Source: a virus
Lineage: Duplodnaviria; Heunggongvirae; Uroviricota; Caudoviricetes
Reading direction: 5' to 3' (one strand)
IMG/VR virus record: IMGVR_UViG_2534682080_000009
Length of the DNA: 21,584 nt
Both the position numbers and the translations under genes were made by a program. A model generated the notes under the pieces. That model was given only the letters and a program-made list of their open reading frames with translations, was not told where the DNA came from and made no database searches. Shown piece by piece: positions 3,884-21,584 of this stretch. Every line of letters starts with the position of its first letter. The stretch's first letter is position 1.

Positions 3884-4877
3884 TATGCAAGCCTCACAAT
3901 ATAGTTAAATGCGATGTTTTTGACGGTGTTTTCCGCGTTACCAGCAGCGTTAACGGTGATGGTGTGTCCATGTGAACCAATCGCAACGGAGTGCGTATGA
4001 GCACCAATACCGACAGTATGTGCATGTGCGCCTGCGCTTGCAGCAGTGCCGGACAGCGAGTGGGTATGAGCACCATCTGATGATGTCTTCCCTGCATTAC
4101 GAGTCTGGCCACTACCGCTTGTTGTGCTCATAATCCCCGCGCTTAGATTTGAAATCGCGGTATAACCATTAGGGAAAATGCTCGTGTTCGTGCCACCAAA
4201 TGCACCGGAACTCTTGTGTTGGTGCGCACCGGCACTATTTGCGGTCCCGCTAATACTATGGGTATGCGCCCCGGTGTTATTCGTGGATTTGGTTCCGTAA
4301 TCAAACGACGATGTGGTTTTCGTCCCCAAATCCGTACTGGATGCGCTGGCGCTGTGGGTGTGCGATTTAATGCCGTCCTGTTCCTGAGATAATACGGCCC
4401 GACCACTGGCGGGCTTGCCCTTAATCGTCCAGCCACGCATATCAGGGATCACGCCTGACGGATAAGCAACTGCAAGTTTCGGGTATGCAGATTTGTCAAA
4501 AGTCTGCCCCTGCATCAGGGCATAACCAGACGGAACGGTATCTGATGGCCACGGGATTGGTGCACCGACTGGATAAAACTCTGCAGGAGGATGAGCCGAG
4601 GTGTAAAGCTGCGCCCACGGCGACCAGTTTGCGTCGGTCGTATCCCGTCGTGAACGAATAAATGCCGGAGCATGAGCACCGCTTGTACCACTCCAGCCGA
4701 TGAGTAACTCACCTTCGCCAACGGCTGTCATCCCTTTCAGGTGAATGATATTTCCATACGCTGTTGGATATCCGTTGTTATACACCTCGTATAACTCAAG
4801 ACCTGCTGCCCCCTGCGTATTGTCTGTCAGCGCGGTTACCCGACCTTTTGAAGCCAGATTAACTGATGATACTGCTG
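3883..4877 (-). pseudogene. stf: side tail fibre protein Stf, C-terminal portion, separated from its N-terminal portion by IS3
   Basis: ORF 3883..4890 (the last 13 nt lie inside the IS3 end). The protein has Gly/Ser/Thr-rich repeats with GAHTHS/GAHAHT His motifs typical of phage distal tail-fibre tips. Its frame is continuous with the N-terminal part across the IS3 junction (codon phase checked by hand). Confidence 0.8.
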
Positions 4878-4907
4878 TGATCCTACCCACGTAATATGGA
4901 CACAGGC

Positions 4908-5774
4908 CTAAGCGAGGTTCTTGTTTTCAAATTGTTCCGGACTGAGGCCGCCACACCAACTGTGCCGCCGCCACCGATTGTAATCACATTCGATATAATT
5001 AAACACCGTTGCCCGCATTATTTCCCGGCTGATAAAGTGTTCTCCATGGATACATTCCACTTTCAGCGAATGAAAGAAGCTTTCCACGCAGGCATTATCG
5101 TAGCAGCAACCTTTTGCGCTCATACTTCCACGCAGATTATGCCGCTTCAGTTGCGCCTGATAATCTGCTGAACAGTACTGGCCTCCACGGTCCGTGTGAA
5201 CGATAACGTTCCGGGGCCTCTTACGCCGCCACAGCGCCATCTGCAGGGCATCGCAGGCCAGTTGCGCCGTCATGCGTGGCGACATTGACCAGCCAATAAC
5301 GGCACGTGACCACAGGTCAATGACCACTGCCAGATACAGCCAGCCTTCATCTGTACGTAAGTACGTGATGTCTCCTGCCCACTTCTGGTTCGGGCCACTG
5401 GCGTAAAAATCCTGCTCCAACAGATTTTCTGACACAGGCAGGCCGTGTGCGCGGTAGCTGACCGGGCTGAACTTCCGGGAGGCCTTTGCCCTCAGTCCCT
5501 GACGGCGCAGGCTTGCCGCCACGGTTTTTACGTTAAAGGGGTAACCCTGAGCACGCAGTTCATCCGTCAGGCGTGGGGCACCGTAACGCTGTTTTGACCG
5601 GGTAAAAGCCGCGAGGACAACGCTGTCGCAGTGTTGGCGGAACTGCTGACGCGTGCTTATCCTTGTCCGCCGCTGACACCACGTATACCAGCCGCTGCGG
5701 GCCACCCGGAGCACGCGGCACATTGCTTTGATGCTGAACTCAGCCTGATGTTTTTCAATAAAGACATACTTCAT
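4908..5774 (-). CDS. insF: IS3 transposase OrfB (integrase/DDE catalytic part, made as an OrfAB fusion by frameshifting)
   Basis: 288-aa ORF recognised as IS3 OrfB (DDE-type domain, e.g. WAGDITYL...HTDRGGQY). Its start overlaps the orfA stop as ATGA. Confidence 0.9.
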
Positions 5775-6070
5775 TTCAGGCGCTTCGCGAAGTATGTCGC
5801 GGCCTTTTGGAGGATAGCCAGCTCTTCATCCCGTTCTGCCAGCTGGCGTTTGAGACGTGCAATCTCGGTAGACATCTCCAGTTCACGTTCAGAAGACGTC
5901 TGCTGATTTTGCTGTTTACTGCGCCAGTTGTAGAGTTGTGATTCATACAGGCTGAGTTCACGGGCTGCGGCAGTAACACCGATGCGTTCAGCAAGCTTCA
6001 GGGCTTCACTGCGAAATTCAGGCGAATGCTGTTTACGGGGTTTTTTACTGGTTGATACTGTTTTTGTCAT
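5771..6070 (-). CDS. insE: IS3 transposase OrfA (HTH DNA-binding part)
   Basis: Translation [54 protein letters not shown]... recognised as IS3 OrfA. ATG at 6070. Confidence 0.9.
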
Positions 6071-6135
6071 GTGAGTCACCTCTGACTGAGAGTTTACTCA
6101 CTTAGCCGCGTGTCCACTATTGCTGGGTAAGATCA

Positions 6136-8218
6136 CTGTTCCACCTGACGGTAACGCCCCGATCTCTGATGCCGTTGGCTTATTTCTGGAGTTATAGTCC
6201 CTTCGCCAGCCAGGTGAATAATCTGTTCCGTGATTAATATAGGTAAACTGGGCGTTAGTTGTTCCACCACCAGTGGAGGTGGTCGGTGTGGTAATGCGGA
6301 TCGTCATCGCTGACTTTATCCCCATTACTTCAATGACAGCTCCGGCGAGATGAATATTACCGCAGTCAGTATCAGTAATGATTTTATTATTGCCATAAGA
6401 CCAGGAACCCTTGCACATCCAGTATGGATGGTTAAATGCTCCCTGAGAATCCAGCCACTCGATAAACTGTGCAGTCGTCCAGTTTCCTGTTGTTGTGCTT
6501 ACTGACCCACCGAAGGCACGGCAGGCACCAATATTTTTCGTAAAGGTATCTTTGCCAGGGATATCCGCACCGTTCTGATCTTTCTGCAGACGTTTCTCAG
6601 CATTGTCATTGGCTGCTTTTACTGCCTTTGGTGTCGCGGCAAGCGTTTCAGACGTGCTGTTGGTCGCGCTGCTTAGCTGGATTATCCCTTTCTGTGCTGT
6701 CGTTGCATCCTGTGCGGTGTATTTCCCGTTAGCCAGGTCATACGCGGCCTTAACGGCTTTTGGTGTTGCCGCCAGTGACTCGGAAGTGCTGTTAGTCGCA
6801 CTACTGAGCTGTACTATCCCCTTTTTCGTCGTGCTCGCATCCTCAAGCGCCACGGCGGATGCAATATCCTCTGCCCGTTTTGCTGCTGTCTCGGCGCGCG
6901 TTGCTGCGGATTCTGCCGTACTTTTGCTCTGAGCTGCCGCCGTCGCACTGCCAGCAGCCTCTGTCGCCTTCGTGGATGCCGTCGTGGCGCTGCTCTTCGC
7001 TGCTGACGCTTGTCTGGTCGCCTCATCTTTTGAAGCAGACGCCGATGATGCCGATGACGCCGCCGAACTGGCTGACGATGCGGCAGCCGTTTTTGAGGAT
7101 TCTGCGCTGGTTTCCGACGCTTTCGCGTTCGTTTCGGATGTCTTCGCTGCGGAAGCAGACCTCGCTGCTGCGCTGGCCTGTTCAGTGGCTTCGCCAGCCT
7201 TCGTTGTGGCTGTTGAAGCAGACGATGCAGCACTTTCTGCCGATTTTCCGGCGGCGGTGGCACTGGCTGAGGCCTGCCCGGCACTTGTTGACGCGGCACT
7301 GGCAGATAATGCAGCCGCTGTTTTTGAGTCTGCCGCAGCTGAGGCGCTCTGTCCCGCTGCCGTTTCAGAAGACCTGGCGTTCGTCTCGGACGTTTTTGCC
7401 GCCTTCGCAGAATTTGCTGCCGCCGTTGCCGAGGAAGCTGCGCTGCTGGCGCTCGAGGCTGCGTTCGTTTCTGATGATTTTGCCGCCTCTTTTGAAGCCG
7501 ACGCATCCCGGGCTGAGGTGGCAGCTTCTGACGCTTTCGTGGTCGCGGTGGATGCAGAAGTGGCTGCTGATTGTTGTGACGCTGCAGCATTCGTTTCTGA
7601 CGTTTTCGCGGCACTGGCACTGGTAGCTGCCGCGCTTTTTGAGGACTCTGCAGCGGCAGCACTTTTTGATGCTTCAGTGGCCTTTGTTGATGCCGTTCCT
7701 GCGCTGGAAGACGCTGACTGAGCCGACGAAGCGGCCTGTCCGGCTGACGTGCTGGCTGCGCGTGCTGAGCCTGCAGCATCAGTCGCATGGGTTGCCGCCT
7801 CACGGGCAGATGTGCCGGCATCGCCGGCTGACTTCTTCGCGGCTGCCGTGTTCTGTGCCACCGCGGACGCGTTACGCGCCACCTCTTCCACCATCAGTTC
7901 AAAACGGCGCAGAGCCTCCGGACGGGCATCATCCTCCGTCATGGCACCGAGAAAATCATTCAGCGTACCGGGTCGGGAATCTTCATACACGGTGATGGTC
8001 CCGGCATGTGACGGCGGGAATCCTTCCACCAACAGAATAACGCTGTACTGACCGTACTCAACGTCCATGCTGTAACGCCCGGCTTCATCCGGATTTTCTG
8101 AGGCCAGCGTGTTCACCACCACCGCGGTGCTGTTACGTTTTGCTTTCAGCTGGATTGTGCAGTTCTGTACCGGTTTTCCTGTGCCGTCTTTCAGTACACC
8201 TGAAATCTTTACTGCCAT
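6136..8218 (-). pseudogene. stf: side tail fibre protein Stf, N-terminal portion, truncated by the IS3 insertion
   Basis: ORF 6098..8224 reads MAVKISGVLKDGTGKPVQNCTIQLKA..., followed by a long Ala/Ser/Thr-rich low-complexity region and two KGI(V/I)QLSSATNSTSE(S/T)LAATPKAVKAA phage-fibre repeats. The ORF then runs 38 nt into the IS3 end before a stop. The likely start is the ATG at 8216-8218. Confidence 0.8.
6617..6832 (-). repeat. two ~75-bp imperfect direct repeats (period ~132 bp) inside stf, encoding the tail-fibre repeat motif
   Basis: DNA copies at about 6621-6694 and 6750-6828, encoding GI(I/V)QLSSATNSTSE(T/S)LAATPKA. Read directly from the sequence. Confidence 0.5.
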
Positions 8219-8951: not shown

Positions 8952-11900
8952 TCAACGAATACTGATGCCGGAAGCGGCTTTTTTGGTCACAATCACCGTA
9001 CAGTCGGTGATATTGCCTGCCCCCTGATTGCCTTTCTGGAAAATCTTAAACTCCAGAGTGACGCTACCACCACCACTAGGCATATCAATAACTGCACTGT
9101 AACTACCGGGAATGGCCCCTTTAGTTTCTCTGGATGCGATTAATACGCCGTTTTTGCGAACTTCAAAACCATAACCCGTGTATCGCGTGCCTCCTGGGTT
9201 ATTTCCGCTCCCCGGATCGTCATACGCTATACCGTTAAAAATAATGGGCGGAATAATAATCTGGCGGTCAAAGTTATGATCATCGCTGATGGTGACTGTA
9301 ACCGTACCGTTTGGTGTTTCCGTGTTACCCCACGTACCGACTTTTTTCGGGAAGGCTTTTGATACAGCTTTAACGATATCCCCTCTGACCTGGGTCGCCT
9401 CCAGCATGCCCTTAATCGTACAGTTCTGGTTAATCGTGACATTGTTGAGCGTTCCTGAGTTCGCATTCACACTACCACTGATATCCGCATTTTTAGCGGT
9501 CAGCTTTCCGTCTGATGTCAGGGAAAATACCGGAGGACTGCCACCGCTGGTAATGGTGGGGGCCGTCAGGCGTTTCAGGAACACTTCATTCATGAATATC
9601 TGATCGCCCTGACCAACAAACATCGGCTTTTGTGTTGCCATTCGCAGGATTAATCATCGCAATCCTGTCTGCTGCCAGCAGCACCTGACTCTGCATGCCG
9701 TCAGGGGTGTTCTCAATACCGGCACCGATACCCGCAATATAAAGGCGTCCGTCCTGCATCTGCTGCAGCTTCACTGCCCACATGCTGTTCAGGTTATTAT
9801 TTGTATCAACCTGAACCTTCTGTATCTGCTGGATTGCCGCACTCTGGTCTTCCAGTTTCTTATTGACGGTCTGTGTTATTTCATTGCTGACATCCGTTAT
9901 GGTCGTCCTGATTTCAGTCAGGTCAGGCGCAAGCTGACCGTTATCAATCTGCGTCCACAGCTCCTGAGCCAGATGGGTTTTCCCTATCTCGCCTTTGAAA
10001 AAATCCAGATAGCCTGATGCATCATCACTCGGCTGACCGACAGCCTCCACGAATGCCGATTTGCCAACGGTGTTCACACTGCGAACGTAAAAATAATAAT
10101 CATGGCCCGGTTTGATATTGATACTGGCGGCTATCCAGTACAGTGCCGTACCAAGATAACGCGCGCTGGTTTCAACCTGCCTGATATCCGCAATCCGTTT
10201 TTCCGAGAACCAGAACTCAAACTGTACCGTCGGGTCATAAACCGCAAGATGCGGCGTGGCGGTTATCTGAAAATAGCCCGGCGTCAGCTCAATCCGCGAC
10301 GGCGCTGCCGGTGCGGCAATCCGGAACGATACCGACGCCGGATCGCCCTGCTGCCCCCACGCATTTACTGCCCGGACTGTCAGCCTGTAGTTCCCCAGAG
10401 CCAGTTGTGTGAAGCGGTAAGTGGTTTCCGTCGTCCGGGCCGTGCTGACCAGCCGCTCACGGCCGTCATCCGCTGCCACGGTCAGGCGAAGCAGGAAGCT
10501 CACGCCCTTCACCACCTTCGGCGTGTCCCAGCGCGCCAGCACCTGGTATTCCCCGCTGTCTGCGGTGACTTCTGCGGTCAGGTGCTGCACCGCTGGCGGC
10601 GTGACACCATTTACCGTGCCGCTCTGGTCGCCGTCAAAGTGCGCCCCGTTATCCACGATGGCCTCTTTTTCCGGTACATGCTGCACGGCGGTGATGGCAT
10701 ACGTGCCGTCGTCGTTCTCACGGATACTCACGCAGCGGAACAGGCGCTGGCGCAACGTCGACAGCTTCAGCCCCCATACGCTGTATTCAGCAACGCCGTC
10801 AGGAACACGGCTCACTTTCACCTTCACGCCGTCGGTGACGGACTGAACCTCCACGCTGACCGGACTCCCCTGCCCGTCAACCAGGCTTATCAGCGTGGTG
10901 CCGGAAGATGGCAGCGTGATTTCACGGTCGAGCGTCAGCGTCCGGGTCTGGCTGTTTACCGCCAGCACGCGCCCGCCGGTGCGGATACCGGCATAGTCAT
11001 CATCGCAGATTTCAATGACATCGCCCGGTACATGGCGAAGCCCTTCGGCACCCACGCTGAAGTCCACGGTCTGCGTTTCCAGCAGTTCTGTTTTAATCAG
11101 CCACAGCCCGGCGCGGTGTGCCTGCCCCCGGCTGGTACAGCCAAAAGCATCCATCTTCGTGACGTTACGACCGTAACGGGCAATGGCCCGCGTGTCCTCC
11201 ACAAGCTCTGTCGCCGTCTCCCAGCCGTTATTCGGGTCAATCCAGTTCACCTCAACGGCATTATGGCGGTCCTTCAGGGCGCTGAAGCTGTAGCGGAACG
11301 GCGCACCATCATCCGGCATCACCACATTACTGCGGTTATAGGTCCACACCTTATCCGACGGTCGGTCCTGCACGAACGTCAGCGTCTGCCCGTTCCATAC
11401 CGGCATACAGCGCATCGCAGAGCAGAAATCACTGAGCACATCCCACGCCTTGCGCTGTGTGGTCAGGTACGCATTACAGGTGATGCGCGGCTCTGTGCCG
11501 CCAAAACCGTCCGGCACCGACTGATCGCAATGCTGGCCGATGACATACAGCGCCCATTTGTCCACATCCGCCGCACCAAGACGTTTCCCCATGCCGTAGC
11601 GCGGATGGGTCAGCATATCCCACAGACACCAGGCCATGTTGTTGCTGTATGCTGGCTTAAACGTTCCGTCCCAGATACCGCTGTATTGCCGCGTCTGCGG
11701 GTTATAGTTCGACGGCACCTGCAGAATGCGCCCGCGCAGATGATAATTACGGCTCACCTGCTGGCTGCCGAACTGCTCCGAATCCACCTGCACGCCGACC
11801 AGTGCCGTGTTCGGGTAGCACTGTTTCACATCGATGATTTCGGTGTATGACGACCAGAGCGTTTTGTTCTGCAGCTGGTCTGTGGTGCTGTCCGGCGTCA

Positions 11901-12450
11901 TCCTGCGCATCCGTATATTGAACGGGCGCGGCGGCAGGTTACCCACCACCACCGAGGCCAGATACTGCGAGGTGGTTTTGCCCTTAATGGTGATGTCTTT
12001 TTCCGTCACCCAGCCACCATTACGCTGGATCTGAACCAGCAGGCGGACTTCCGACGGATTCCGGTCCCCCTTTGAGGTGGTTTCCACCAGTGCCTGCACG
12101 CCGAAGGTAAAGCGCAGACGGTCGATGTTTGCAGACGTAATGGTGCGGGTGATCGGCGTGTCATATTTCACTTCCGTACCCAGCACCGTCTCGGAGCCGG
12201 AGGATTCAAACCCCTCCGGCGGTGTCTGCTCCTGCTCACCGGCACGGAACACCACCGTGACACCGGAGATGTTGGTATTCCCCTCAGTGTCCAGCACCGG
12301 CGTACTGTTCAGCAGCACGCTTTTTAATCCATCCACCGGACCTTCAACCGGCCCTTCGCTGATGGCATCGATCACACTCAGCAGCTGCGTGGACTTCAGG
12401 TTGTCCTTCGCTTCGCGCGGGGTATGCCCCTTACTGCTGCCTTTACCCAT
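8952..12450 (-). CDS. J: tail tip / host-specificity protein J (central tail fibre); frame broken near 9625-9631, possible pseudogene or sequencing error
   Basis: ORF 9586..12450 (954 aa) starts [34 protein letters not shown]..., recognised as lambda gpJ. It is continued in another frame by ORF 8952..9641 (229 aa). The two overlap by 56 bp, consistent with a single-base indel. Confidence 0.85.
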
Positions 12451-12510
12451 TCCTCACGCTCCATAAATGACAAAACCGCCCGCAGGCGGTTTCACATAAA
12501 ACATTTTGCA

Positions 12511-13182
12511 TCAGCGACCAATCACCACAACCTGACCACCGTCCCCTTCGTCTGCCGTGCTGATCTCCTGAGAAACCACGCGAGACCCCACGCGCATTTC
12601 CCCGTACAGAACAGGCAGAACATTGCCCTGGGCAACCATGTTATCCAGTGAGGAGAAATAGGTGTTCTGCTTACCGTTATCCGTTGTCTGTGTACGGGGA
12701 GTTCTGGCTTTCGGTGCCAGCATCTGCGCCACACCACCGAGCACCATACTGGCACCGAGAGAAAACAGGATGCCGGTCATACCACCGGTCCCAATGGCTG
12801 CCCCCCATGCTGCAAGGGTGGCTCCGGCGGTAAAGAATGATCCGGCAATGGCGGCAGCCCCCAGGACAATCTGGAATACGCCACCTGACTTGGCCCCGGC
12901 GACTCTGGGAACAATATGAATCACAGCGCCATCAGGCAGAGTCTCATGTAACTGCGCCGTTAACCCGGACGTGCTGACGTCCCGCCCGGCAATCCGTACC
13001 TGATACCAGCCGTCGCTCAGTTTCTGACGAAACGCCGGGAGCTGTGTGGCCAGTGCCCGGATGGCTTCAGCCCCCGTTTTCACACGAAGGTCGATGCGGC
13101 GACCAAATCGTTGTAAATCCCCGTAAAGGCAGATGCGCGCCATGCCCGGTGACGCCAGAGGGAGTGTGTGCGTCGCTGCCAT
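12511..13182 (-). CDS. I: tail tip assembly protein I
   Basis: 223-aa ORF MAATHTLPLASPGMARICLYGDLQRFGRR... recognised as lambda gpI. Its 5' end overlaps the 3' end of K by 103 bp. Confidence 0.9.
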   Translation of the reverse strand: MAATHTLPLASPGMARICLYGDLQRFGRRIDLRVKTGAEAIRALATQLPAFRQKLSDGWYQVRIAGRDVSTSGLTAQLHETLPDGAVIHIVPRVAGAKSGGVFQIVLGAAAIAGSFFTAGATLAAWGAAIGTGGMTGILFSLGASMVLGGVAQMLAPKARTPRTQTTDNGKQNTYFSSLDNMVAQGNVLPVLYGEMRVGSRVVSQEISTADEGDGGQVVVIGR

Positions 13183-13824
13183 TTGTCGGTGTACCTCTCT
13201 CGTTTGCTCAGTTGTTCAGGAATATGGTGCAGCAGCTCGCCGTCGCCGCAGTAAATTGCGGCGTGATTCGGCACTGATGAACCAAAACAGCACAGCAGCA
13301 CATCGCCCGGCTGTGCCGCTGACAACGGCACCTGATACAGCCCCGTCGCCTCCAGATTATCCAGATAGAGATTCTGGCCGTTACGCCACCAGTCATCCTC
13401 ACGATAAAAGTCCGGCATCTCAATCCCCGCCAGATGATAAGCATCCCGGAACAGTGTGTAACAGTCCGTCACACCGTGCTCAAAGCGCCGCCCGGTGAGA
13501 TGCGGCACACAGCGGAACTTATGAATCGTCCCCCGGCAGACCAGCCACCACGGCAAAATCACTCTGCACCTGCAGCCGCCGGTCGGCCTCACTCAGCCAG
13601 GGCAGACCACCGGGGTGGCTGTGGACCAGCGCCACAATCTCACCCTGCATTTCTGCCTGCAGCCAGTCTTCCGGCGACATACGGAAATACGCCTCCGGCT
13701 CACCGGAGATATTCACGCAGGGAAAATATCTTTCCCCCTCCGGCGTGCTTACCACGAAGCCGCACGACTCCGCTGGCGCACATCGCCGGGCGTGCGCCAG
13801 AATCGCTGATTCTGTCTGTGTCAT
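13080..13824 (-). CDS. K: tail tip assembly protein K (JAMM/MPN-like plus NlpC/P60-like); frame broken near 13555-13558
   Basis: ORF 13519..13824 (MTQTESAILAHARRC..., with the JAMM-like motif HSHPGGLPWLSEAD) and ORF 13080..13592 (..LPWWLVCRGTIHKF..., Cys-containing NlpC/P60-like part) are in different frames. The break falls at a T run (minus strand GATTTTGCC). Confidence 0.8.
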
Positions 13825-13829
13825 GGGAT

Positions 13830-14527
13830 TTACTGCGAAAGTTTGTTAATGGAAAGGAAGCTGCCAAAGTTGCCGACATTATTGCGAAACTTACAGCCAC
13901 TCAGGCATTTGCTGCATTTATCCTTCGTGATATCGGACGTCGGCTGGTCATATTCATCCGCGACCGCCGGACCGCTATAACCGCACTCATCGCCGCGATA
14001 GGTCCAGGTGCAGGTGTTGGCCAGCATGATACGTCCCGGAAAAACAGCGCCATCCGTTTCCGTCGGCGTGGACAGTACAAAGGAGGCACTCACCGCGCTC
14101 AGTTCGCTGCACTGCTCAATGCGCCAGCGGCTGATCACCTCCTGCTCCGGATCGGCGTAACTGTTTCCGTTGACGAAGTTCACCGCATCCAGAAAACGGG
14201 CGTAAACCTTACGCCGGACCACCGTTCCGCCGACCAGACTCTGCATATCTTCCGCCATCCCGGTGACCATACCGTACAGGTTAGAAACCGTCAGCGTGGG
14301 GCGCGTACTGGTGCCTTTGCCATTCAGTTCAAAACCGCTCCCCTGAATGGGATACGGCTGATACTGTCGCCCCTGCCAGGTGACCGGCTCACCTTTTTCG
14401 TTCTGCTCATTACAGAAAAATAACGTTCTCCACCGACCTCTGTCAGGTCGATTTCCCAGAGCACCACGCTGGCCGACTGCTCCGCACGGGTGCATTCATT
14501 CAGTGTTTCCTGCCGGATATCCTGCAT
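13830..14527 (-). CDS. L: tail tip protein L; frame broken at 14416-14420
   Basis: ORF 14324..14527 starts MQDIRQETLNECTRAEQSASVVLWEIDLTEVGGERYF and ORF 13830..14495 carries the remainder, ending with the Cys cluster KDKCSKCLSGCKF. The frame switches at a T5 run on the minus strand. The ATG overlaps the M stop as ATGA. Confidence 0.85.
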
Positions 14528-14856
14528 CAGTTCACCACCTGTTCAAACTCTGCGCTGAACTCAACACGCAACATACTGACCCGCGACGACCATTTTACGC
14601 AGGTCACCTTTATCTGCCGCCACTCATAAGGCGGCGTCCACAGAAAGGATTTCCAGCCCCCGTGCTCTTCCAGAAACGACTCCAGTACCGTGGCCTCCTC
14701 ACGGGGGACAGAAAGCGTCACGCTGTACGTTTTCAGGTTGGCATTCAGCCCGGCAGGCGCTCGCTGAGAATAGCCATCACCAAAGCGCACCTTTCTTACA
14801 GAAGGGACCGAAGCCACATCCATACCGGGTTTCACTTTCCAGCGGAAGGTCTTCAT
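14527..14856 (-). CDS. M: tail tip protein M
   Basis: 109-aa ORF MKTFRWKVKPGMDVASVPSVRKVRFGDGYSQRAPAGLNANLK... recognised as lambda gpM. Intact. Confidence 0.9.
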   Translation of the reverse strand: MKTFRWKVKPGMDVASVPSVRKVRFGDGYSQRAPAGLNANLKTYSVTLSVPREEATVLESFLEEHGGWKSFLWTPPYEWRQIKVTCVKWSSRVSMLRVEFSAEFEQVVN

Positions 14857-17415
14857 CGTCCACCTCCGGAGAACAGGCCACCATCACGCATCTGTGTCTG
14901 AATTTCATCACGGGCACCCTTGCGGGCCATGTCATACACCGCCTTCAGAGCAGCCGGACCTATCTGCCCGTTCGTGCCGTCGTTGTTAATCACCACATGG
15001 TTATTCTGCTCAAACGTCCCGGACGCCTGCGACCGGCTGTCTGCCATGCTGCCCGGTGTACCGACATAACCGCCGGTGGCATAGCCGCGCATCAGCCGGT
15101 AAAGATTCCCCACGCCAATCCGGCTGGTTGCCTCCTTCGTGAAGACAAATTCACCACGGTGAACAATCCCCGCTGGCTCATATTTGCCGCCGGTTCCCGT
15201 AAATCCTCCGGTTGCAAAATGGAATTTCGCCGCAGCGGCCTGAATGGCTGTACCGCCTGACGCGGATGCGCCGCCACCAACAGCCCCGCCAATGGCGCTG
15301 CCGATACTCCCGACAATCCCCACCATTGCCTGCTTAAGCAGAATTTCTGTCATCATGGACAGCACGGAACGGGTGAAGCTGCGCCAGTTCTGCTCACTGC
15401 CGGTCAGCATCGCCGCCATATTCTGTGCAATACCATCAAAGGTCTGCGTGGCTGCACTTTTTACCTGCGACATACTGTCCGTGGCGCTCTCTTCCCACTC
15501 ACTCCAGCCGGACTTCAGGCCTGCCATCCAGCTCCCGCGAAGCTGGTCTTCAGCCGCCCAGGTCTTTTTCTGCTCTGACATGACGTTATTCAGCGCCAGC
15601 GGATTTATCGCCATACTGTTCCTTCAGGCGCTGTTCCGTGGCTTCCCGTTCTGCCTGCCGGTCAGTCAGCCCCCGGCTTTTCGCATCAATGGCGGCCCGT
15701 TTTGCCCGTTGCTGCTGTGCGAATTTATCCGCCTGCTGCGCCAGCGCGTTCAGGCGCTCCTGATACGTAACCTTGTCGCCAAGTGCAGCCAGCTGGCGTT
15801 TGTACTCCAGCGTCTCATCTTTATGCGCCAGCAGGGATTTCTCCTGTGCAGACAGCTGGCGACGTTGCGCCGCCTCCTCCGGTACCGCGAACTGACTCTC
15901 CGCCTTCCACAAATCCCGGCGCTGCTGGCTGATTTTCTCATTTGCTCCGGCATGCTTCTCCAGCGTCCGGAGTTCTGCCTGAAGCGTCAGCAGGGCAGCA
16001 TGAGCACTGTCTTCCTGACGATCGCCCGCAGACACCTTCACGCCGGACTGTTTCGGCTTTTTCAGCGTCGCTTCATAATCCTTTTTCGCCGCCGCCATCA
16101 GCGTGTTGTAATCCGCCTGCAGGATTTTCCCGTCTTTCAGTGCCTTGTTCAGTTCTTCCTGACGGGCGGTATATTTCTCCAGCGGCGTCTGCAGGCGTTC
16201 ATAAGCCTTCTGCGCCTCTTCGGTATATTTCAGCCGTGACGCTTCGGTATCGCTCTGCTGCTGCGCATTTTTGTCCTGTTGACTCTGCTGCTCAGCCTTC
16301 TTTCGGGCGGCTTCAAGCGCAAGACGGGCCTTTTCACGATCATCCCAGTAACGCGCCCGCGCTTCATCGTTAACAAAATAATCATCCTTGCGCAGATTCC
16401 AGATATCGTCCGCTTTCTTAAACGCGGCCTCTGCCTTAATCAGCATCTCCTGCGCGGTATCAGGACGACCAATATCCAGCACCGCATCCCACATGGATTT
16501 GAATGCCCGTGCTGTCCTGTCTGCCCAGGTTTCCAGCGTGCCCATGTTCTCTTTCAGGCGGCGGGTCTGGTCATCAAACCCTTTCGTTGCGGCCTCGTTC
16601 GCCGCCTGCAATGCCCCGGCTTCATCGCCGGAACGCTGCAACTGAGCAACATACGCAATCTGCTCCGCCGTCACGTTACTGGAACTGGCGTGCCATCGCC
16701 GTCAGCCCGACGTCGGGTCTGTGGTCAGCTTCCCGAAGGCTTCAGCGACCTTGTCCACCTCCACGCCGGATGCAGAGGAGAAACGCGCCACACTCTGGCT
16801 GATGGACGCAATCTGAGCCTCACCGCTTACCCCCGCCTTAACCAGTGCGCTGAGTGACTCGCTGGTCTGGTTAAACGTCAGCCCTGCCGCCTGCCCGGCT
16901 CTGGACAGGACCAGCATACGATCTGCCGTCAGTCCCGCCTGATTGCCGGAAAGGACCAGCGTTTTGTTGAAATCGGACAGGGTTGAGTTGCCCTGATACC
17001 AGGCATACGCCAGCGCTCCGGTCGCCACCGCCAGCGAGGTAGCCCCCACCATCGGCAGGGTGATCGCACCGGCAAGCCCCCGGAACATGGGGATCATCCC
17101 GCCGAAGGAGTCCTTCACCTGACCCCCCTGTTGCAGCAGGATCAGCCACGGACTTTGCCCGCCTGCAAGCTGCGTGGCCACGTCGGTGAACTGTGCAGGC
17201 AGCATACGCATGGCGGCTTTATACTGCCCGACGGAAATCCCCGCTTTCTGTGCAGCCAGCGCCTGTCGGCTCAGCGACTGTTCAACGACTGCCGCTGTTT
17301 TTTTCGCATCAGTTTCCGTACCGGAAAAATGACGCCTGACTCTGGCCATCTGCTCGCCAAATCTGGCCGCATCCAGACTTAAATCAACGACCAGATCGCC
17401 TACCGGTTCAGCCAT
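14853..17415 (-). CDS. H: tail tape measure protein H; disrupted by an internal out-of-frame patch with an in-frame TGA (about 16677-16708) and a further frameshift (about 15601-15609)
   Basis: Three consecutive ORFs (16702..17415, 15586..16674, 14853..15614) together give an 853-codon tape-measure-like protein (MAEPVGDLVVDLSLDAARF... to ...RDGGLFSGGGR) with a coiled-coil Ala/Gln/Glu/Lys-rich centre and Gly-rich C-terminus. The first two ORFs are in the same frame, separated by a 9-codon scrambled stretch. Confidence 0.85.
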
Positions 17416-17842
17416 ACCGGACTCCTCCTGCGATCCCTTCTGATACTGTCATCAGCATTACGTCATCCTCCGTCATGTCCGCCACATCCGGGGAAGCGGG
17501 GATAACTTCATTCCCTTCCGGGCCAAAGCGGACGCCTCCGGCAAGCCCTGCCGCTTTCTGCATCAGCACATCATCTTCAGGCTCTTCGTCAGCCTCACGC
17601 CGGTTCAGCAGACTGAAATCCAGCGGATGCATATCCGGATCGCTGAAAAACAGGCTGAGCACGGTGTACGTCAGCCCGGAAAAGTGCATATCCAGCAGAA
17701 CATCATGAAAATAATGGGTACTGTAAAAGCGGTGCCAGTCGGCATACTCCGTGGATGACATCCCGGCAAGCATGGCACGCCAGTCGGGTCGCCCCATCTC
17801 TCGCGCCAGTTTCAGGGCAAAACTCAGCTCACCATCGAACAC
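17408..17842 (-). CDS. T: tail assembly protein T reading frame (expressed as the G-T fusion by programmed -1 frameshift)
   Basis: 144-codon frame overlapping the 3' end of G, translation ...HRFYSTHYFHDVLLDMHFSGLTYTVL... recognised as lambda gpT. No independent Shine-Dalgarno expected. Confidence 0.8.
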   Translation of the reverse strand: MFDGELSFALKLAREMGRPDWRAMLAGMSSTEYADWHRFYSTHYFHDVLLDMHFSGLTYTVLSLFFSDPDMHPLDFSLLNRREADEEPEDDVLMQKAAGLAGGVRFGPEGNEVIPASPDVADMTEDDVMLMTVSEGIAGGVRYG

Positions 17843-18246
17843 TTTCCCGCAGAAACAGGCTCTGCAGGCCCGGCGTCCTCTGTCTGTTCAGGAGCATCAT
17901 TCACCACAAACTCATACATACCGGACAGCCGGTACACCACGTTTTCAGCATGAGAAATTGCCTCCGTGGGCCAGGTGGTAAGCACTTCCTGCTCAATCTG
18001 TTTAACGGCTTCATTCATGGAAGGCAGCTTTGTCTTCTTCGGATGGTTATGCCACAGGGACATCGCCACCAGAAACGCGCCGGTTCTGATGGCGTCTTCC
18101 ACAGTAAACTTCCGGTTGCTGTCTGACTCCGCCTGTTCTGCCTGCCGTTTCATCAGGGCGAGATGCTCAATACGCTGCAGGGCTGACAGTTCAGAAAGCG
18201 TGACGGTCACACCGTTATGTTCAAATGATTCGGTTTTCAGGAACAT
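17824..18246 (-). CDS. G: tail assembly chaperone G
   Basis: 140-aa ORF MFLKTESFEHNGVTVTLSELSALQRIEHLALMKRQAEQ... ending ..AGKCSMVS, recognised as lambda gpG. Confidence 0.9.
   Translation of the reverse strand: MFLKTESFEHNGVTVTLSELSALQRIEHLALMKRQAEQAESDSNRKFTVEDAIRTGAFLVAMSLWHNHPKKTKLPSMNEAVKQIEQEVLTTWPTEAISHAENVVYRLSGMYEFVVNDAPEQTEDAGPAEPVSAGKCSMVS
17842..17848 (-). other. programmed -1 ribosomal frameshift slippery heptamer GGGAAAG (G to G-T)
   Basis: Minus-strand sequence ...TCT GCG GGA AAG TGT TCG ATG GTG AGC TGA: GGGAAAG sits 6 codons before the G stop and the -1 frame continues into T. Confidence 0.7.
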
Positions 18247-18261
18247 CTCTGACTCCCCGGA

Positions 18262-19004
18262 TTAACTGGCGGTGACGGTGATTTCTGCAACCGCAGCAAA
18301 CTCACCATTACCGGATACAACCGGAATGTTGACCTTGCCTGCAGCAACGCCGTTCACGGTGACGGTCATACCACTGACCGACACGGTGGCTTTTGTTTTA
18401 TCCGCAGACACCGCACGAAAGCTCTTGTCGGTTACGCCCTCCGGCTGGAAGGCCACGGTCAGCGTGGTGCTCTGCCCTTTCACCACCGAGGTGCTGGCAG
18501 GCGTCACGGTCATGCCGGTTGCCGCTGTTACCGTGCTGCGATCTTCTGCCATCGACGGACGTCCCACATTGGTGACTTTCACCGTGCGGGTGATCACTTC
18601 CTTCGCCGTCTACCGCCTTACCGATACTGCTGACCCAGCCACGGAACACATCGACCGTGCCGTTCGGGAAGCGGATTTTATAGGCACGGGTATCGCCTTC
18701 ATTAAACCACGCCAGCAGCGCCTGCTGCCCCTGCTCTCCGGGCATCCACGCCAGCGTGAAGCTGGTATCTCCGGCAGATTTCTGCCCCTGCCCGGTCGCA
18801 GTCCAGTCTGCATCTTCATCATCGAGATAGCTGTCGTCATAGGACTCAGCGGTCAGTTCGCCGGGCGTCAGGTCTTTAACTTTTGCCAGACGCGACCAGT
18901 CAACGTCTGAAAGCGGATTTCGCATAAGGGTCACCGCTCCCCTTATAAACCCACAGGGTGGTCCCGGCACCTTTCACCGGCATTGTAGGATTTGGTACAG
19001 GCAT
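18262..19004 (-). CDS. V: major tail tube protein V; frame broken twice (about 18918-18920 and 18604-18612)
   Basis: ATG at 19004 gives [28 protein letters not shown] then leaves frame. ORF 18398..18970 carries ..[29 protein letters not shown]...VSSIGKAV in a second frame. ORF 18262..18597 carries [20 protein letters not shown]...AEITVTAS (Ig-like C-terminal domain) in the third frame. Confidence 0.85.
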
Positions 19005-19011
19005 AGCGTCC

Positions 19012-19407
19012 TCACATTTCATAGGTAATGACATAAGTCAGATCGGCTGAACTCCACAGGCCCGCATCATCGTCGCGCCGGTAGTCATAGCCGCTGGCCA
19101 CCATACTGGTGATCAAATCTGACAGTGCCGGGATATCGCTCATCACCGGATAAATCCGGGACTCCATCCACGCATCCAGCTCTGAATCCGGCACCTGAGC
19201 AGGCAGGAAAACTTCGATATGCAGCTCCGCCTGCCAGGTATCGCTGTCCAGCTCTTCGCCCGTGTATTCAGCGCCGGTGAGATAAACGGCAACTGCCGGA
19301 AAATCCGCCTCATCAAAAACAGCGGGGCGACCATCAAAAAACGTCGCCCCGGTGTCATGCTTCTCCAGTGCATCCAGTACGGCTGCACGGAGTTCAGTAT
19401 GTTTCAT
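19012..19407 (-). CDS. U: tail terminator protein U
   Basis: 131-aa [46 protein letters not shown]... recognised as lambda gpU. Overlaps the Z stop as ATGA. Confidence 0.9.
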
Positions 19408-20798: not shown

Positions 20799-21584
20799 TT
20801 ACGCCAGTTGTACGGACACGAACTCATCAGGGTCAGCCAGCAGCATCAGCGGTGCTGACTGAATCATGGTGAACTCACGCGCCGGATCGCCGGTGGTCAC
20901 CCAGTTTTTCGGGTAACGGGCAGAGGCGTTAATGCCTTCGCGCTGTGCGTCCGCATCCTGAATGCAGCCATAGGTGCGCAGACCGCGTGCCTGAGTGTTC
21001 CCCAGCACCATCGTGTTGTCCGGCAGGAAGTTCTTTTTGACGCCGTTTTCCACGTACTGTCCGGAATACACGACGATGGCCACATCGCCATACATCCCCT
21101 TATAGGACACCGCTTTGCCCAGGTCTTTCACCGCTGTCTCCAGCTCGGAATGAGAGCCACGACGGGTATCCAGCTTCTCCTTGACGGCTTTGAAGGAACG
21201 GAACAGCGCCCAGCCTTTCGGATCGAACACGATGATATTCACCACACCGCTGGCGTTCAGCGCGTAGGCTTCGATATCGTCGGTCGGGTCATACGTGGAC
21301 TTGTCACGCTTGCTCCACTCCGTGCCGCCGGACTGCGTGATGTTATTCTCCTCACTGCGGCCCATATCCACCTCAACCGGATCGAAGGCTTCACCGGTCA
21401 TGGTGTATTTGCCCTTAAGCACGGCAGAAACTGCCTGCATCTCTTCGACCTGAGCAATGGCCAGCTCTTCGTCACGCATGTTCTGCATGATGATGCGACG
21501 GCGGCGGTAAGCCGGGTCCGCCAGATTCTGCGGATCTTCATCCGGCAGGCGACGCAGGGTCATCTGCGGATTCACTTCATGCTT
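20799..21584 (-). CDS. E: major capsid protein E, C-terminal ~261 codons (5' end lies beyond the window)
   Basis: The frame is open to the window edge, translation ..KHEVNPQMTLRRLPDEDPQNLADPAYRRRRIIMQNMRDEELA... ending ..DEFVSVQLA, recognised as lambda gpE. The ORF-track start at 21575 is an internal GTG. Confidence 0.9.
   Translation of the reverse strand, partial: KHEVNPQMTLRRLPDEDPQNLADPAYRRRRIIMQNMRDEELAIAQVEEMQAVSAVLKGKYTMTGEAFDPVEVDMGRSEENNITQSGGTEWSKRDKSTYDPTDDIEAYALNASGVVNIIVFDPKGWALFRSFKAVKEKLDTRRGSHSELETAVKDLGKAVSYKGMYGDVAIVVYSGQYVENGVKKNFLPDNTMVLGNTQARGLRTYGCIQDADAQREGINASARYPKNWVTTGDPAREFTMIQSAPLMLLADPDEFVSVQLA

Follow-up and report, generated by a model that had tools for sequence, protein, structure and literature searches.

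Results

H is split into three ORFs in a lambda-like Qin-locus prophage

The stretch of DNA analyzed here (21,584 nt in full and referred to below as the window) carries a prophage that resembles lambda and occupies the Qin locus (ydfJ). The tail genes of the prophage follow the order V-G-T-H-M-L-K-I-J, colinear with both phage lambda and the prophage of Escherichia coli XJW9B263, with H located between G/T and M, and the neighbors of the tail module are lom, an IS3-disrupted side tail fibre gene, tfaQ, pinQ, ydfK, ynfT, and a truncated ydfJ. H (14853..17415, minus strand) is a lambda-type tape measure gene, and a 2901-nt query containing it (14700-17600) is about 99.0% identical to lambda at the nucleotide level. 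It is equivalent to lambda H (NP_040595.1) and the intact E. coli alleles (e.g. WP_000840342.1), with which it agrees in position, strand, and module order, but, in this record, its reading frame is broken at three points and two invariant residues are altered (D20G and L512P). The gene measures 2563 nt compared with 2562 nt in intact relatives, and, instead of a single ORF of ~853 codons, the ORF listing contains three, of 237, 362, and 253 aa. The first (16702..17415, minus strand) runs from the native start to a premature TGA at 16702-16704 and carries D20G (17357). The second (15586..16674, minus strand; EGX10830.1) begins with a GTG start, keeps the native frame up to the last of the three indels described below, and carries L512P (15881). 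The third (14853..15614, minus strand; EGX10829.1) contains the C-terminal domain of H and begins at a fortuitous ATG made by the shift in frame. The Pfam families TMP_2 (PF06791) and Tape_meas_lam_C (PF09718) match fragments 1 and 3.

Two further features of the window lie outside the tail module. The IS3 element in the side tail fibre gene (4876-6139) differs from the IS3 of XJW9B263 by 1 mismatch and no gaps; it is inserted 97 bp from the XJW9B263 insertion and in the opposite orientation, and other close relatives have no IS3 there. It appears that the side tail fibre gene was struck by IS3 independently in two lineages. In the ydfJ pseudogene, a run of six T residues in XJW9B263 is reduced to five at position 1104, and the 67-aa fragment occurs in 108 index blocks (24 contigs read). 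Either the variant is widespread or the homopolymer is miscalled repeatedly; in both cases, the difference stands apart from the private lesions described below.

Three single-base indels and two substitutions disrupt H

We aligned three H sequences: that of the window, the uninterrupted one of E. coli XJW9B263 (WP_000840342.1), and that of lambda. Only five differences separate the window H from that of XJW9B263, namely three single-base indels and two substitutions. First, a base is missing at 16706..16708 (minus strand, alignment column 708; a C-run on the plus strand), where the coding strand reads GGG and all relatives have GGGG. Second, a coding-strand G has been added at 16679 (minus strand, column 738) outside any homopolymer, converting CCA-TAAC into CCAGTAAC. 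The stretch between this -1 and this +1, which are 26 nt apart (16679..16708, minus strand), contains nine changed codons, including a TGA: intact H reads GGG CTG ACG GCG ATG GCA CGC CAG TTC CAT, and the window reads GGC TGA CGG CGA TGG CAC GCC AGT TCC AGT. Third, an additional base at 15604..15606 (minus strand, column 1811), where the coding strand has AAA and the relatives have AA (GAT-AAT to GATAAAT), places the last 250 of the 853 H codons out of frame. The first-pass annotation, which had been made from the sequence without database searches and had called for an alignment of 14853..17415 with lambda H, had described a -1/+1 pair enclosing a nine-codon patch with an in-frame TGA and a separate single-base insertion at an AAA run that shifts the C-terminal third of H. 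All of these lesions are present in that alignment; the private substitutions D20G and L512P had both been missed.

All private lesions fall in a 9.5-kb block extending from J to V

We aligned the whole window to XJW9B263, its closest complete-genome relative, and counted the differences private to this record, setting aside the IS3 element, a patch of 14 substitutions in stf, and the ydfJ T-run variant at 1104. All private lesions fall within 9377..18918 and amount to 15, of which 8 are single-base indels and 7 are substitutions. Besides those in H, the indels are located in J (9628), K (13555), L (14415, a run of six A residues reduced to five), and V (18611 and 18918), and those in K, L, and V are also seen when the window is compared with lambda. 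In the deposited annotation, J is consequently found as 954 + 223 aa, K as 65 + 142 aa, and V as 175 + 49 aa, and L is a 221-aa protein from a later start. The remaining substitutions are found in J (9377, 9903, and 11189), M (14597), and V (18363). The view that the damage is an event specific to H, as in the first-pass annotation, does not hold because the same 9.5 kb contains five more private frameshifts (J, K, L, and two in V) and seven private nonsynonymous substitutions. An extra C at 13690 relative to lambda was considered as a further lesion and rejected as a natural difference between lambda and the prophage; it is common to XJW9B263, whose K is a 247-aa C40 peptidase, and in NC_001416, where the annotated K is shorter, the equivalent position falls just upstream of it.

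The lesions are derived in this record. Within the part of the block that can be aligned to lambda (9954-19100), XJW9B263 is identical to lambda at each of the 12 differing positions (12/12); the three lesions at 9377-9903 lie outside this stretch and were left out of the polarity count. The lesion types include +1, -1, transitions, and transversions. All seven substitutions are nonsynonymous, and 4 of the 5 that could be polarized are A:T to G:C transitions. The indels fall at runs of length 0, 0, 2, 2, 3, 3, 4, and 6, so that 6 of the 8 are at runs of 3 or fewer, two are insertions outside any run, and the runs of at least 5 are spared in 34 of 35 cases. Accordingly, replication slippage or pure homopolymer error was rejected as a sufficient cause, with only 1 of 35 such runs affected and two insertions outside runs.

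The boundaries of the block are sharp. Elsewhere in the window, 9.2 kb of prophage DNA show no private difference from XJW9B263, although ~14 would be expected at the rate seen in the block (P about 5e-7 for none, by arithmetic). The 10 kb of chromosome bordering the window match several complete genomes at 100.0% identity, and every gene there is intact. These observations bear on whether E. coli G58-1, the source of the window (see below), might be a general mutator deficient in mismatch repair, in which the lesions would be ordinary mutator frameshifts and transitions. The spectrum of mismatch repair-deficient cells consists of transitions and 1-bp indels, which the A:T to G:C transitions and 1-bp indels seen here resemble, but mutator indels concentrate in long runs, and long runs are spared here. 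Further, no private change is seen in either flank, be it the 10 kb of neighboring chromosome or the 9.2 kb of prophage DNA. Because the edges of the block are sharp and its flanks clean, a general mutator, like uniform neutral decay, is ruled out, and we regard the mutator explanation as highly improbable.

The lesion spectrum differs from that of natural divergence

We used natural divergence in the same genes and in the same window as a comparison. Between the H genes of XJW9B263 and lambda, there are 22 substitutions, 16 of them synonymous, and 0 indels. As an internal control, we used the stf patch (7229-7459), located in the gene for the N-terminal domain of the tail fibre. It differs from XJW9B263 by 14 substitutions and 0 indels, 9 of its 13 changed codons being synonymous, and has the look of normal variation between alleles or through recombination. 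Pooled, the natural controls contain 36 substitutions and no indels, and 25 of the 35 codons affected carry synonymous changes. Assuming a natural indel share of 10%, the probability that at least 8 of 15 changes would be indels is 3e-5, and, given the synonymous share in the controls, the probability of finding 0 of 7 synonymous is about 7e-4 (by arithmetic). The spectrum of the block is thus unlike that of natural divergence.

We considered whether the lesions could nevertheless be genuine, i.e. whether the element is a defective prophage at ydfJ (Qin) whose tail module from J to V underwent a local shower of mutations or came in by recombination from a heavily decayed copy not yet sampled. 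The IS3 element inside the side tail fibre gene is one real disruption already, the seven of seven nonsynonymous changes are compatible with neutral evolution after inactivation, A:T to G:C transitions (4 of the 5 polarized substitutions) are a common natural class, and the error-free flanks indicate that the assembly of this contig is not bad overall. The cryptic Qin prophage of E. coli K-12 offers a likeness, as it has decayed at the same site, is flanked by ydfJ', ynfT, ydfK, pinQ, and tfaQ, and has an IS in its tail fibre gene. Known prophage decay, however, proceeds by deletions, IS insertions, and substitutions common to related strains, whereas the block described here carries many private 1-bp indels and has no shared history. 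Further, the indel share (8/15) is far above the natural expectation and above the 0/36 found in the same genes, 6 of the 8 indels avoid the long runs, and equally dispensable prophage DNA (9.2 kb) is unchanged. One inactivating change would suffice to silence the module, and eight frameshifts would not be selectable. H resembles a pseudogene in that its frame is disrupted relative to functional homologues, but the mutations have neither the spectrum nor the distribution of natural ones (8 indels to 7 substitutions versus 0 to 36, with long runs spared and sharp edges). We therefore consider genuine decay to be unlikely, although it is the strongest of the alternatives to an artefact. If all 15 lesions were real, they would amount to a localized mutation shower over the ~9.5-kb tail module, consisting mainly of +1 insertions at nonrepetitive positions, with the flanks left unchanged. 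We know of no described bacterial mutational process with such a signature and think it quite improbable that one acted here.

The close spacing of the -1 and +1 in H had been taken in the first-pass annotation as something a single random sequencing error would not produce. This is correct for one isolated error. Within an error burst, it is not: when 8 indels are placed at random in 9.5 kb, a pair of opposite sign within 30 bp arises in 7% of trials. Selection for compensation does not explain the pair either, because the TGA lies inside the patch, and the +1 therefore rescues nothing. We conclude that the pairing is only mildly unusual and that, given the local burst, no special mechanism is needed.

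The lesions tested are confined to one record, with the exception of the L fragment

We searched for the lesions in other genomes and in contig collections. The -1/+1 patch had 0 matches among the 1,374 complete E. coli genomes that carry the stretch, and the AAA site (15604-15606) was not matched exactly along its whole length by any of 3,578 complete E. coli genomes. The D20G allele was absent from the 3,473 complete E. coli genomes carrying the respective stretch, and the L512P allele was absent from 2,859. A 47-mer containing the mutant patch had 0 matches in metagenome and viral contig collections; its wild-type counterpart had 95 in metagenome contigs and at least 120 in viral contigs. 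At the protein level, each of the nine frameshift fragments (from V, H, K, and J) maps to a single contig in an index of about 15 billion proteins, in which the intact neighbor G is present on at least 1000 contigs. The absence of the H lesions from every other genome, metagenome, and viral contig searched argues further against genuine decay.

The exception is the 221-aa L fragment, which occurs on two contigs. The second belongs to a different strain (GCA_045571795.1; JBIGLZ010000001.1), and it was rejected as an independent resequencing of G58-1, having its own, unrelated frameshifts. We note that this 4.73-Mb contig shows the identical loss of one A from the run of six in L, as well as split E, Z, H, and J and a fusion of K and I; it looks like an error-rich assembly with many indels. 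Apart from this recurrence of the L fragment, no independent confirmation of the lesions, either in a second isolate or through shared descent, was found. In GCA_008122345.1 and GCA_003742765.3, the genes ydfI, ydfH, dcp, and a cinA-like gene beside ydfJ, all intact in G58-1, are fragmented, and these two assemblies are further examples in the public record of assembly-level frameshifts.

The same searches bear on the idea that H might be expressed from its interrupted frame by translational recoding, through read-through of the TGA combined with programmed frameshifting of the kind known from G-T. Such a -1 shift does operate in the adjacent G-T pair, and its slippery site GGGAAAG is intact just upstream of H (17841-17847, minus strand). 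Against this, thousands of homologous H genes are all single ORFs, the shifts occur in 0 of 1,374 and 0 of 3,578 genomes, inspection of the sequence reveals no slippery heptamer at any of the three sites in H, and the adjacent genes are broken as well. To our knowledge, it would be without precedent for a single gene to combine +1, -1, and +1 shifts with read-through of a stop. On these grounds of sequence, recoding appears effectively refuted and may, for practical purposes, be excluded.

The window derives from a draft assembly of E. coli G58-1

The exact 237-aa H fragment occurs on one contig only, AFDX01000016.1 (GCA_000225165.2), from E. coli G58-1, and the window corresponds to the last 21,584 bases of this contig, which stems from a 2011 draft whole-genome-shotgun assembly. 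EGX10829.1 and EGX10830.1 were deposited under the strain name G58-1. G58-1 is a commensal of phylogroup A, and its AFDX record is a direct submission. The accessions surrounding it (AFDU-AFDW and AFDY-AFEA) come from one center and were produced from 454 Titanium paired-end reads with Celera v6.0 and no second technology. G58-1 is not named in the paper covering these neighboring accessions, but the accession series makes it probable that the strain was processed by the same 454/Celera pipeline.

The contig (120,006 nt) ends inside the major capsid gene E (position 21584 of the window), and the genomes of close relatives each contain two or three H-like copies. This break in E and these multiple copies in relatives imply that G58-1 probably contains a second lambdoid prophage. 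They also suggest that G58-1 contains a further copy of the head region and that this repeat broke the assembly at E.

Discussion

The first-pass annotation had left open whether the lesions in H are real or an artefact. Its anatomy of the gene stands, and the evidence now favors an artefact. Most likely, the broken H reflects a locally poor consensus in what is probably a 454/Celera draft and represents no biological feature. As would be expected of an error cluster, the lesions tested are, apart from the L fragment, unique to one record; those that could be polarized are derived; and the set is rich in indels (8/15) and bears no sign of selection, none of the substitutions being synonymous (0/7). 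We infer a technical cause from these properties, and the reason for the confinement of the errors to the block is inferred likewise.

We propose that consensus errors occurred in a burst across the ~9.5-kb stretch from J to V and that three of the indels and two of the substitutions happened to land in H. The -1/+1 pair would then be two neighboring errors in a poor stretch rather than a compensated mutation. Consensus errors in 454 data are usually indels, arising from both over- and under-calls, and homopolymer deletions occur in nanopore data. A candidate cause is thin or mixed 454/Celera read support across DNA shared with the probable second lambdoid prophage; alternatively, a finishing product used to fill the J-V module may have introduced the errors. 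Artificial frameshifts in draft and long-read-only assemblies are likewise private single-base indels that split conserved genes. The present case differs from such artefacts in that the errors are limited to one 9.5-kb block of an otherwise perfect contig, and it differs from a simple homopolymer-error model in that the block also contains substitutions and insertions outside homopolymers.

Three observations speak against an artefact. First, the same contig is flawless over the neighboring 10 kb; for this reason, a generally poor assembly fails as an explanation, and a local cause must be assumed. Second, the seven substitutions are unlike the classic 454 signature, and only 3 of the 7 copy a neighboring base. 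Third, the multicopy IS3 in the window is without indels. Two more specific sources of error were considered and rejected as explanations of the substitutions. The "neighbor-copy" pseudo-substitutions known from 454 data fit 3 of the 7 substitutions, which is no enrichment, and mixing of the consensus with a paralogous prophage copy would require alleles such as D20G and L512P to occur elsewhere, and they were found in none of about 3,000 genomes.

If the lesions were real, H would be dead, as the first-pass annotation had correctly reasoned in the conditional, and, together with H, J, K, L, and V would be true pseudogenes, making prophage tails impossible. The interest would then lie in the clustered, insertion-rich signature over five tail genes and not in H. 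As we favor a consensus artefact, the significance of our analysis is mainly cautionary. G58-1 serves as a reference commensal. Fragments among its deposited proteins, one example being "minor tail protein H domain protein", would enter pseudogene tallies or be taken to indicate a defective prophage without tails, and prophage completeness calls, pseudogene counts, and protein clusters drawn from this record would inherit the error.
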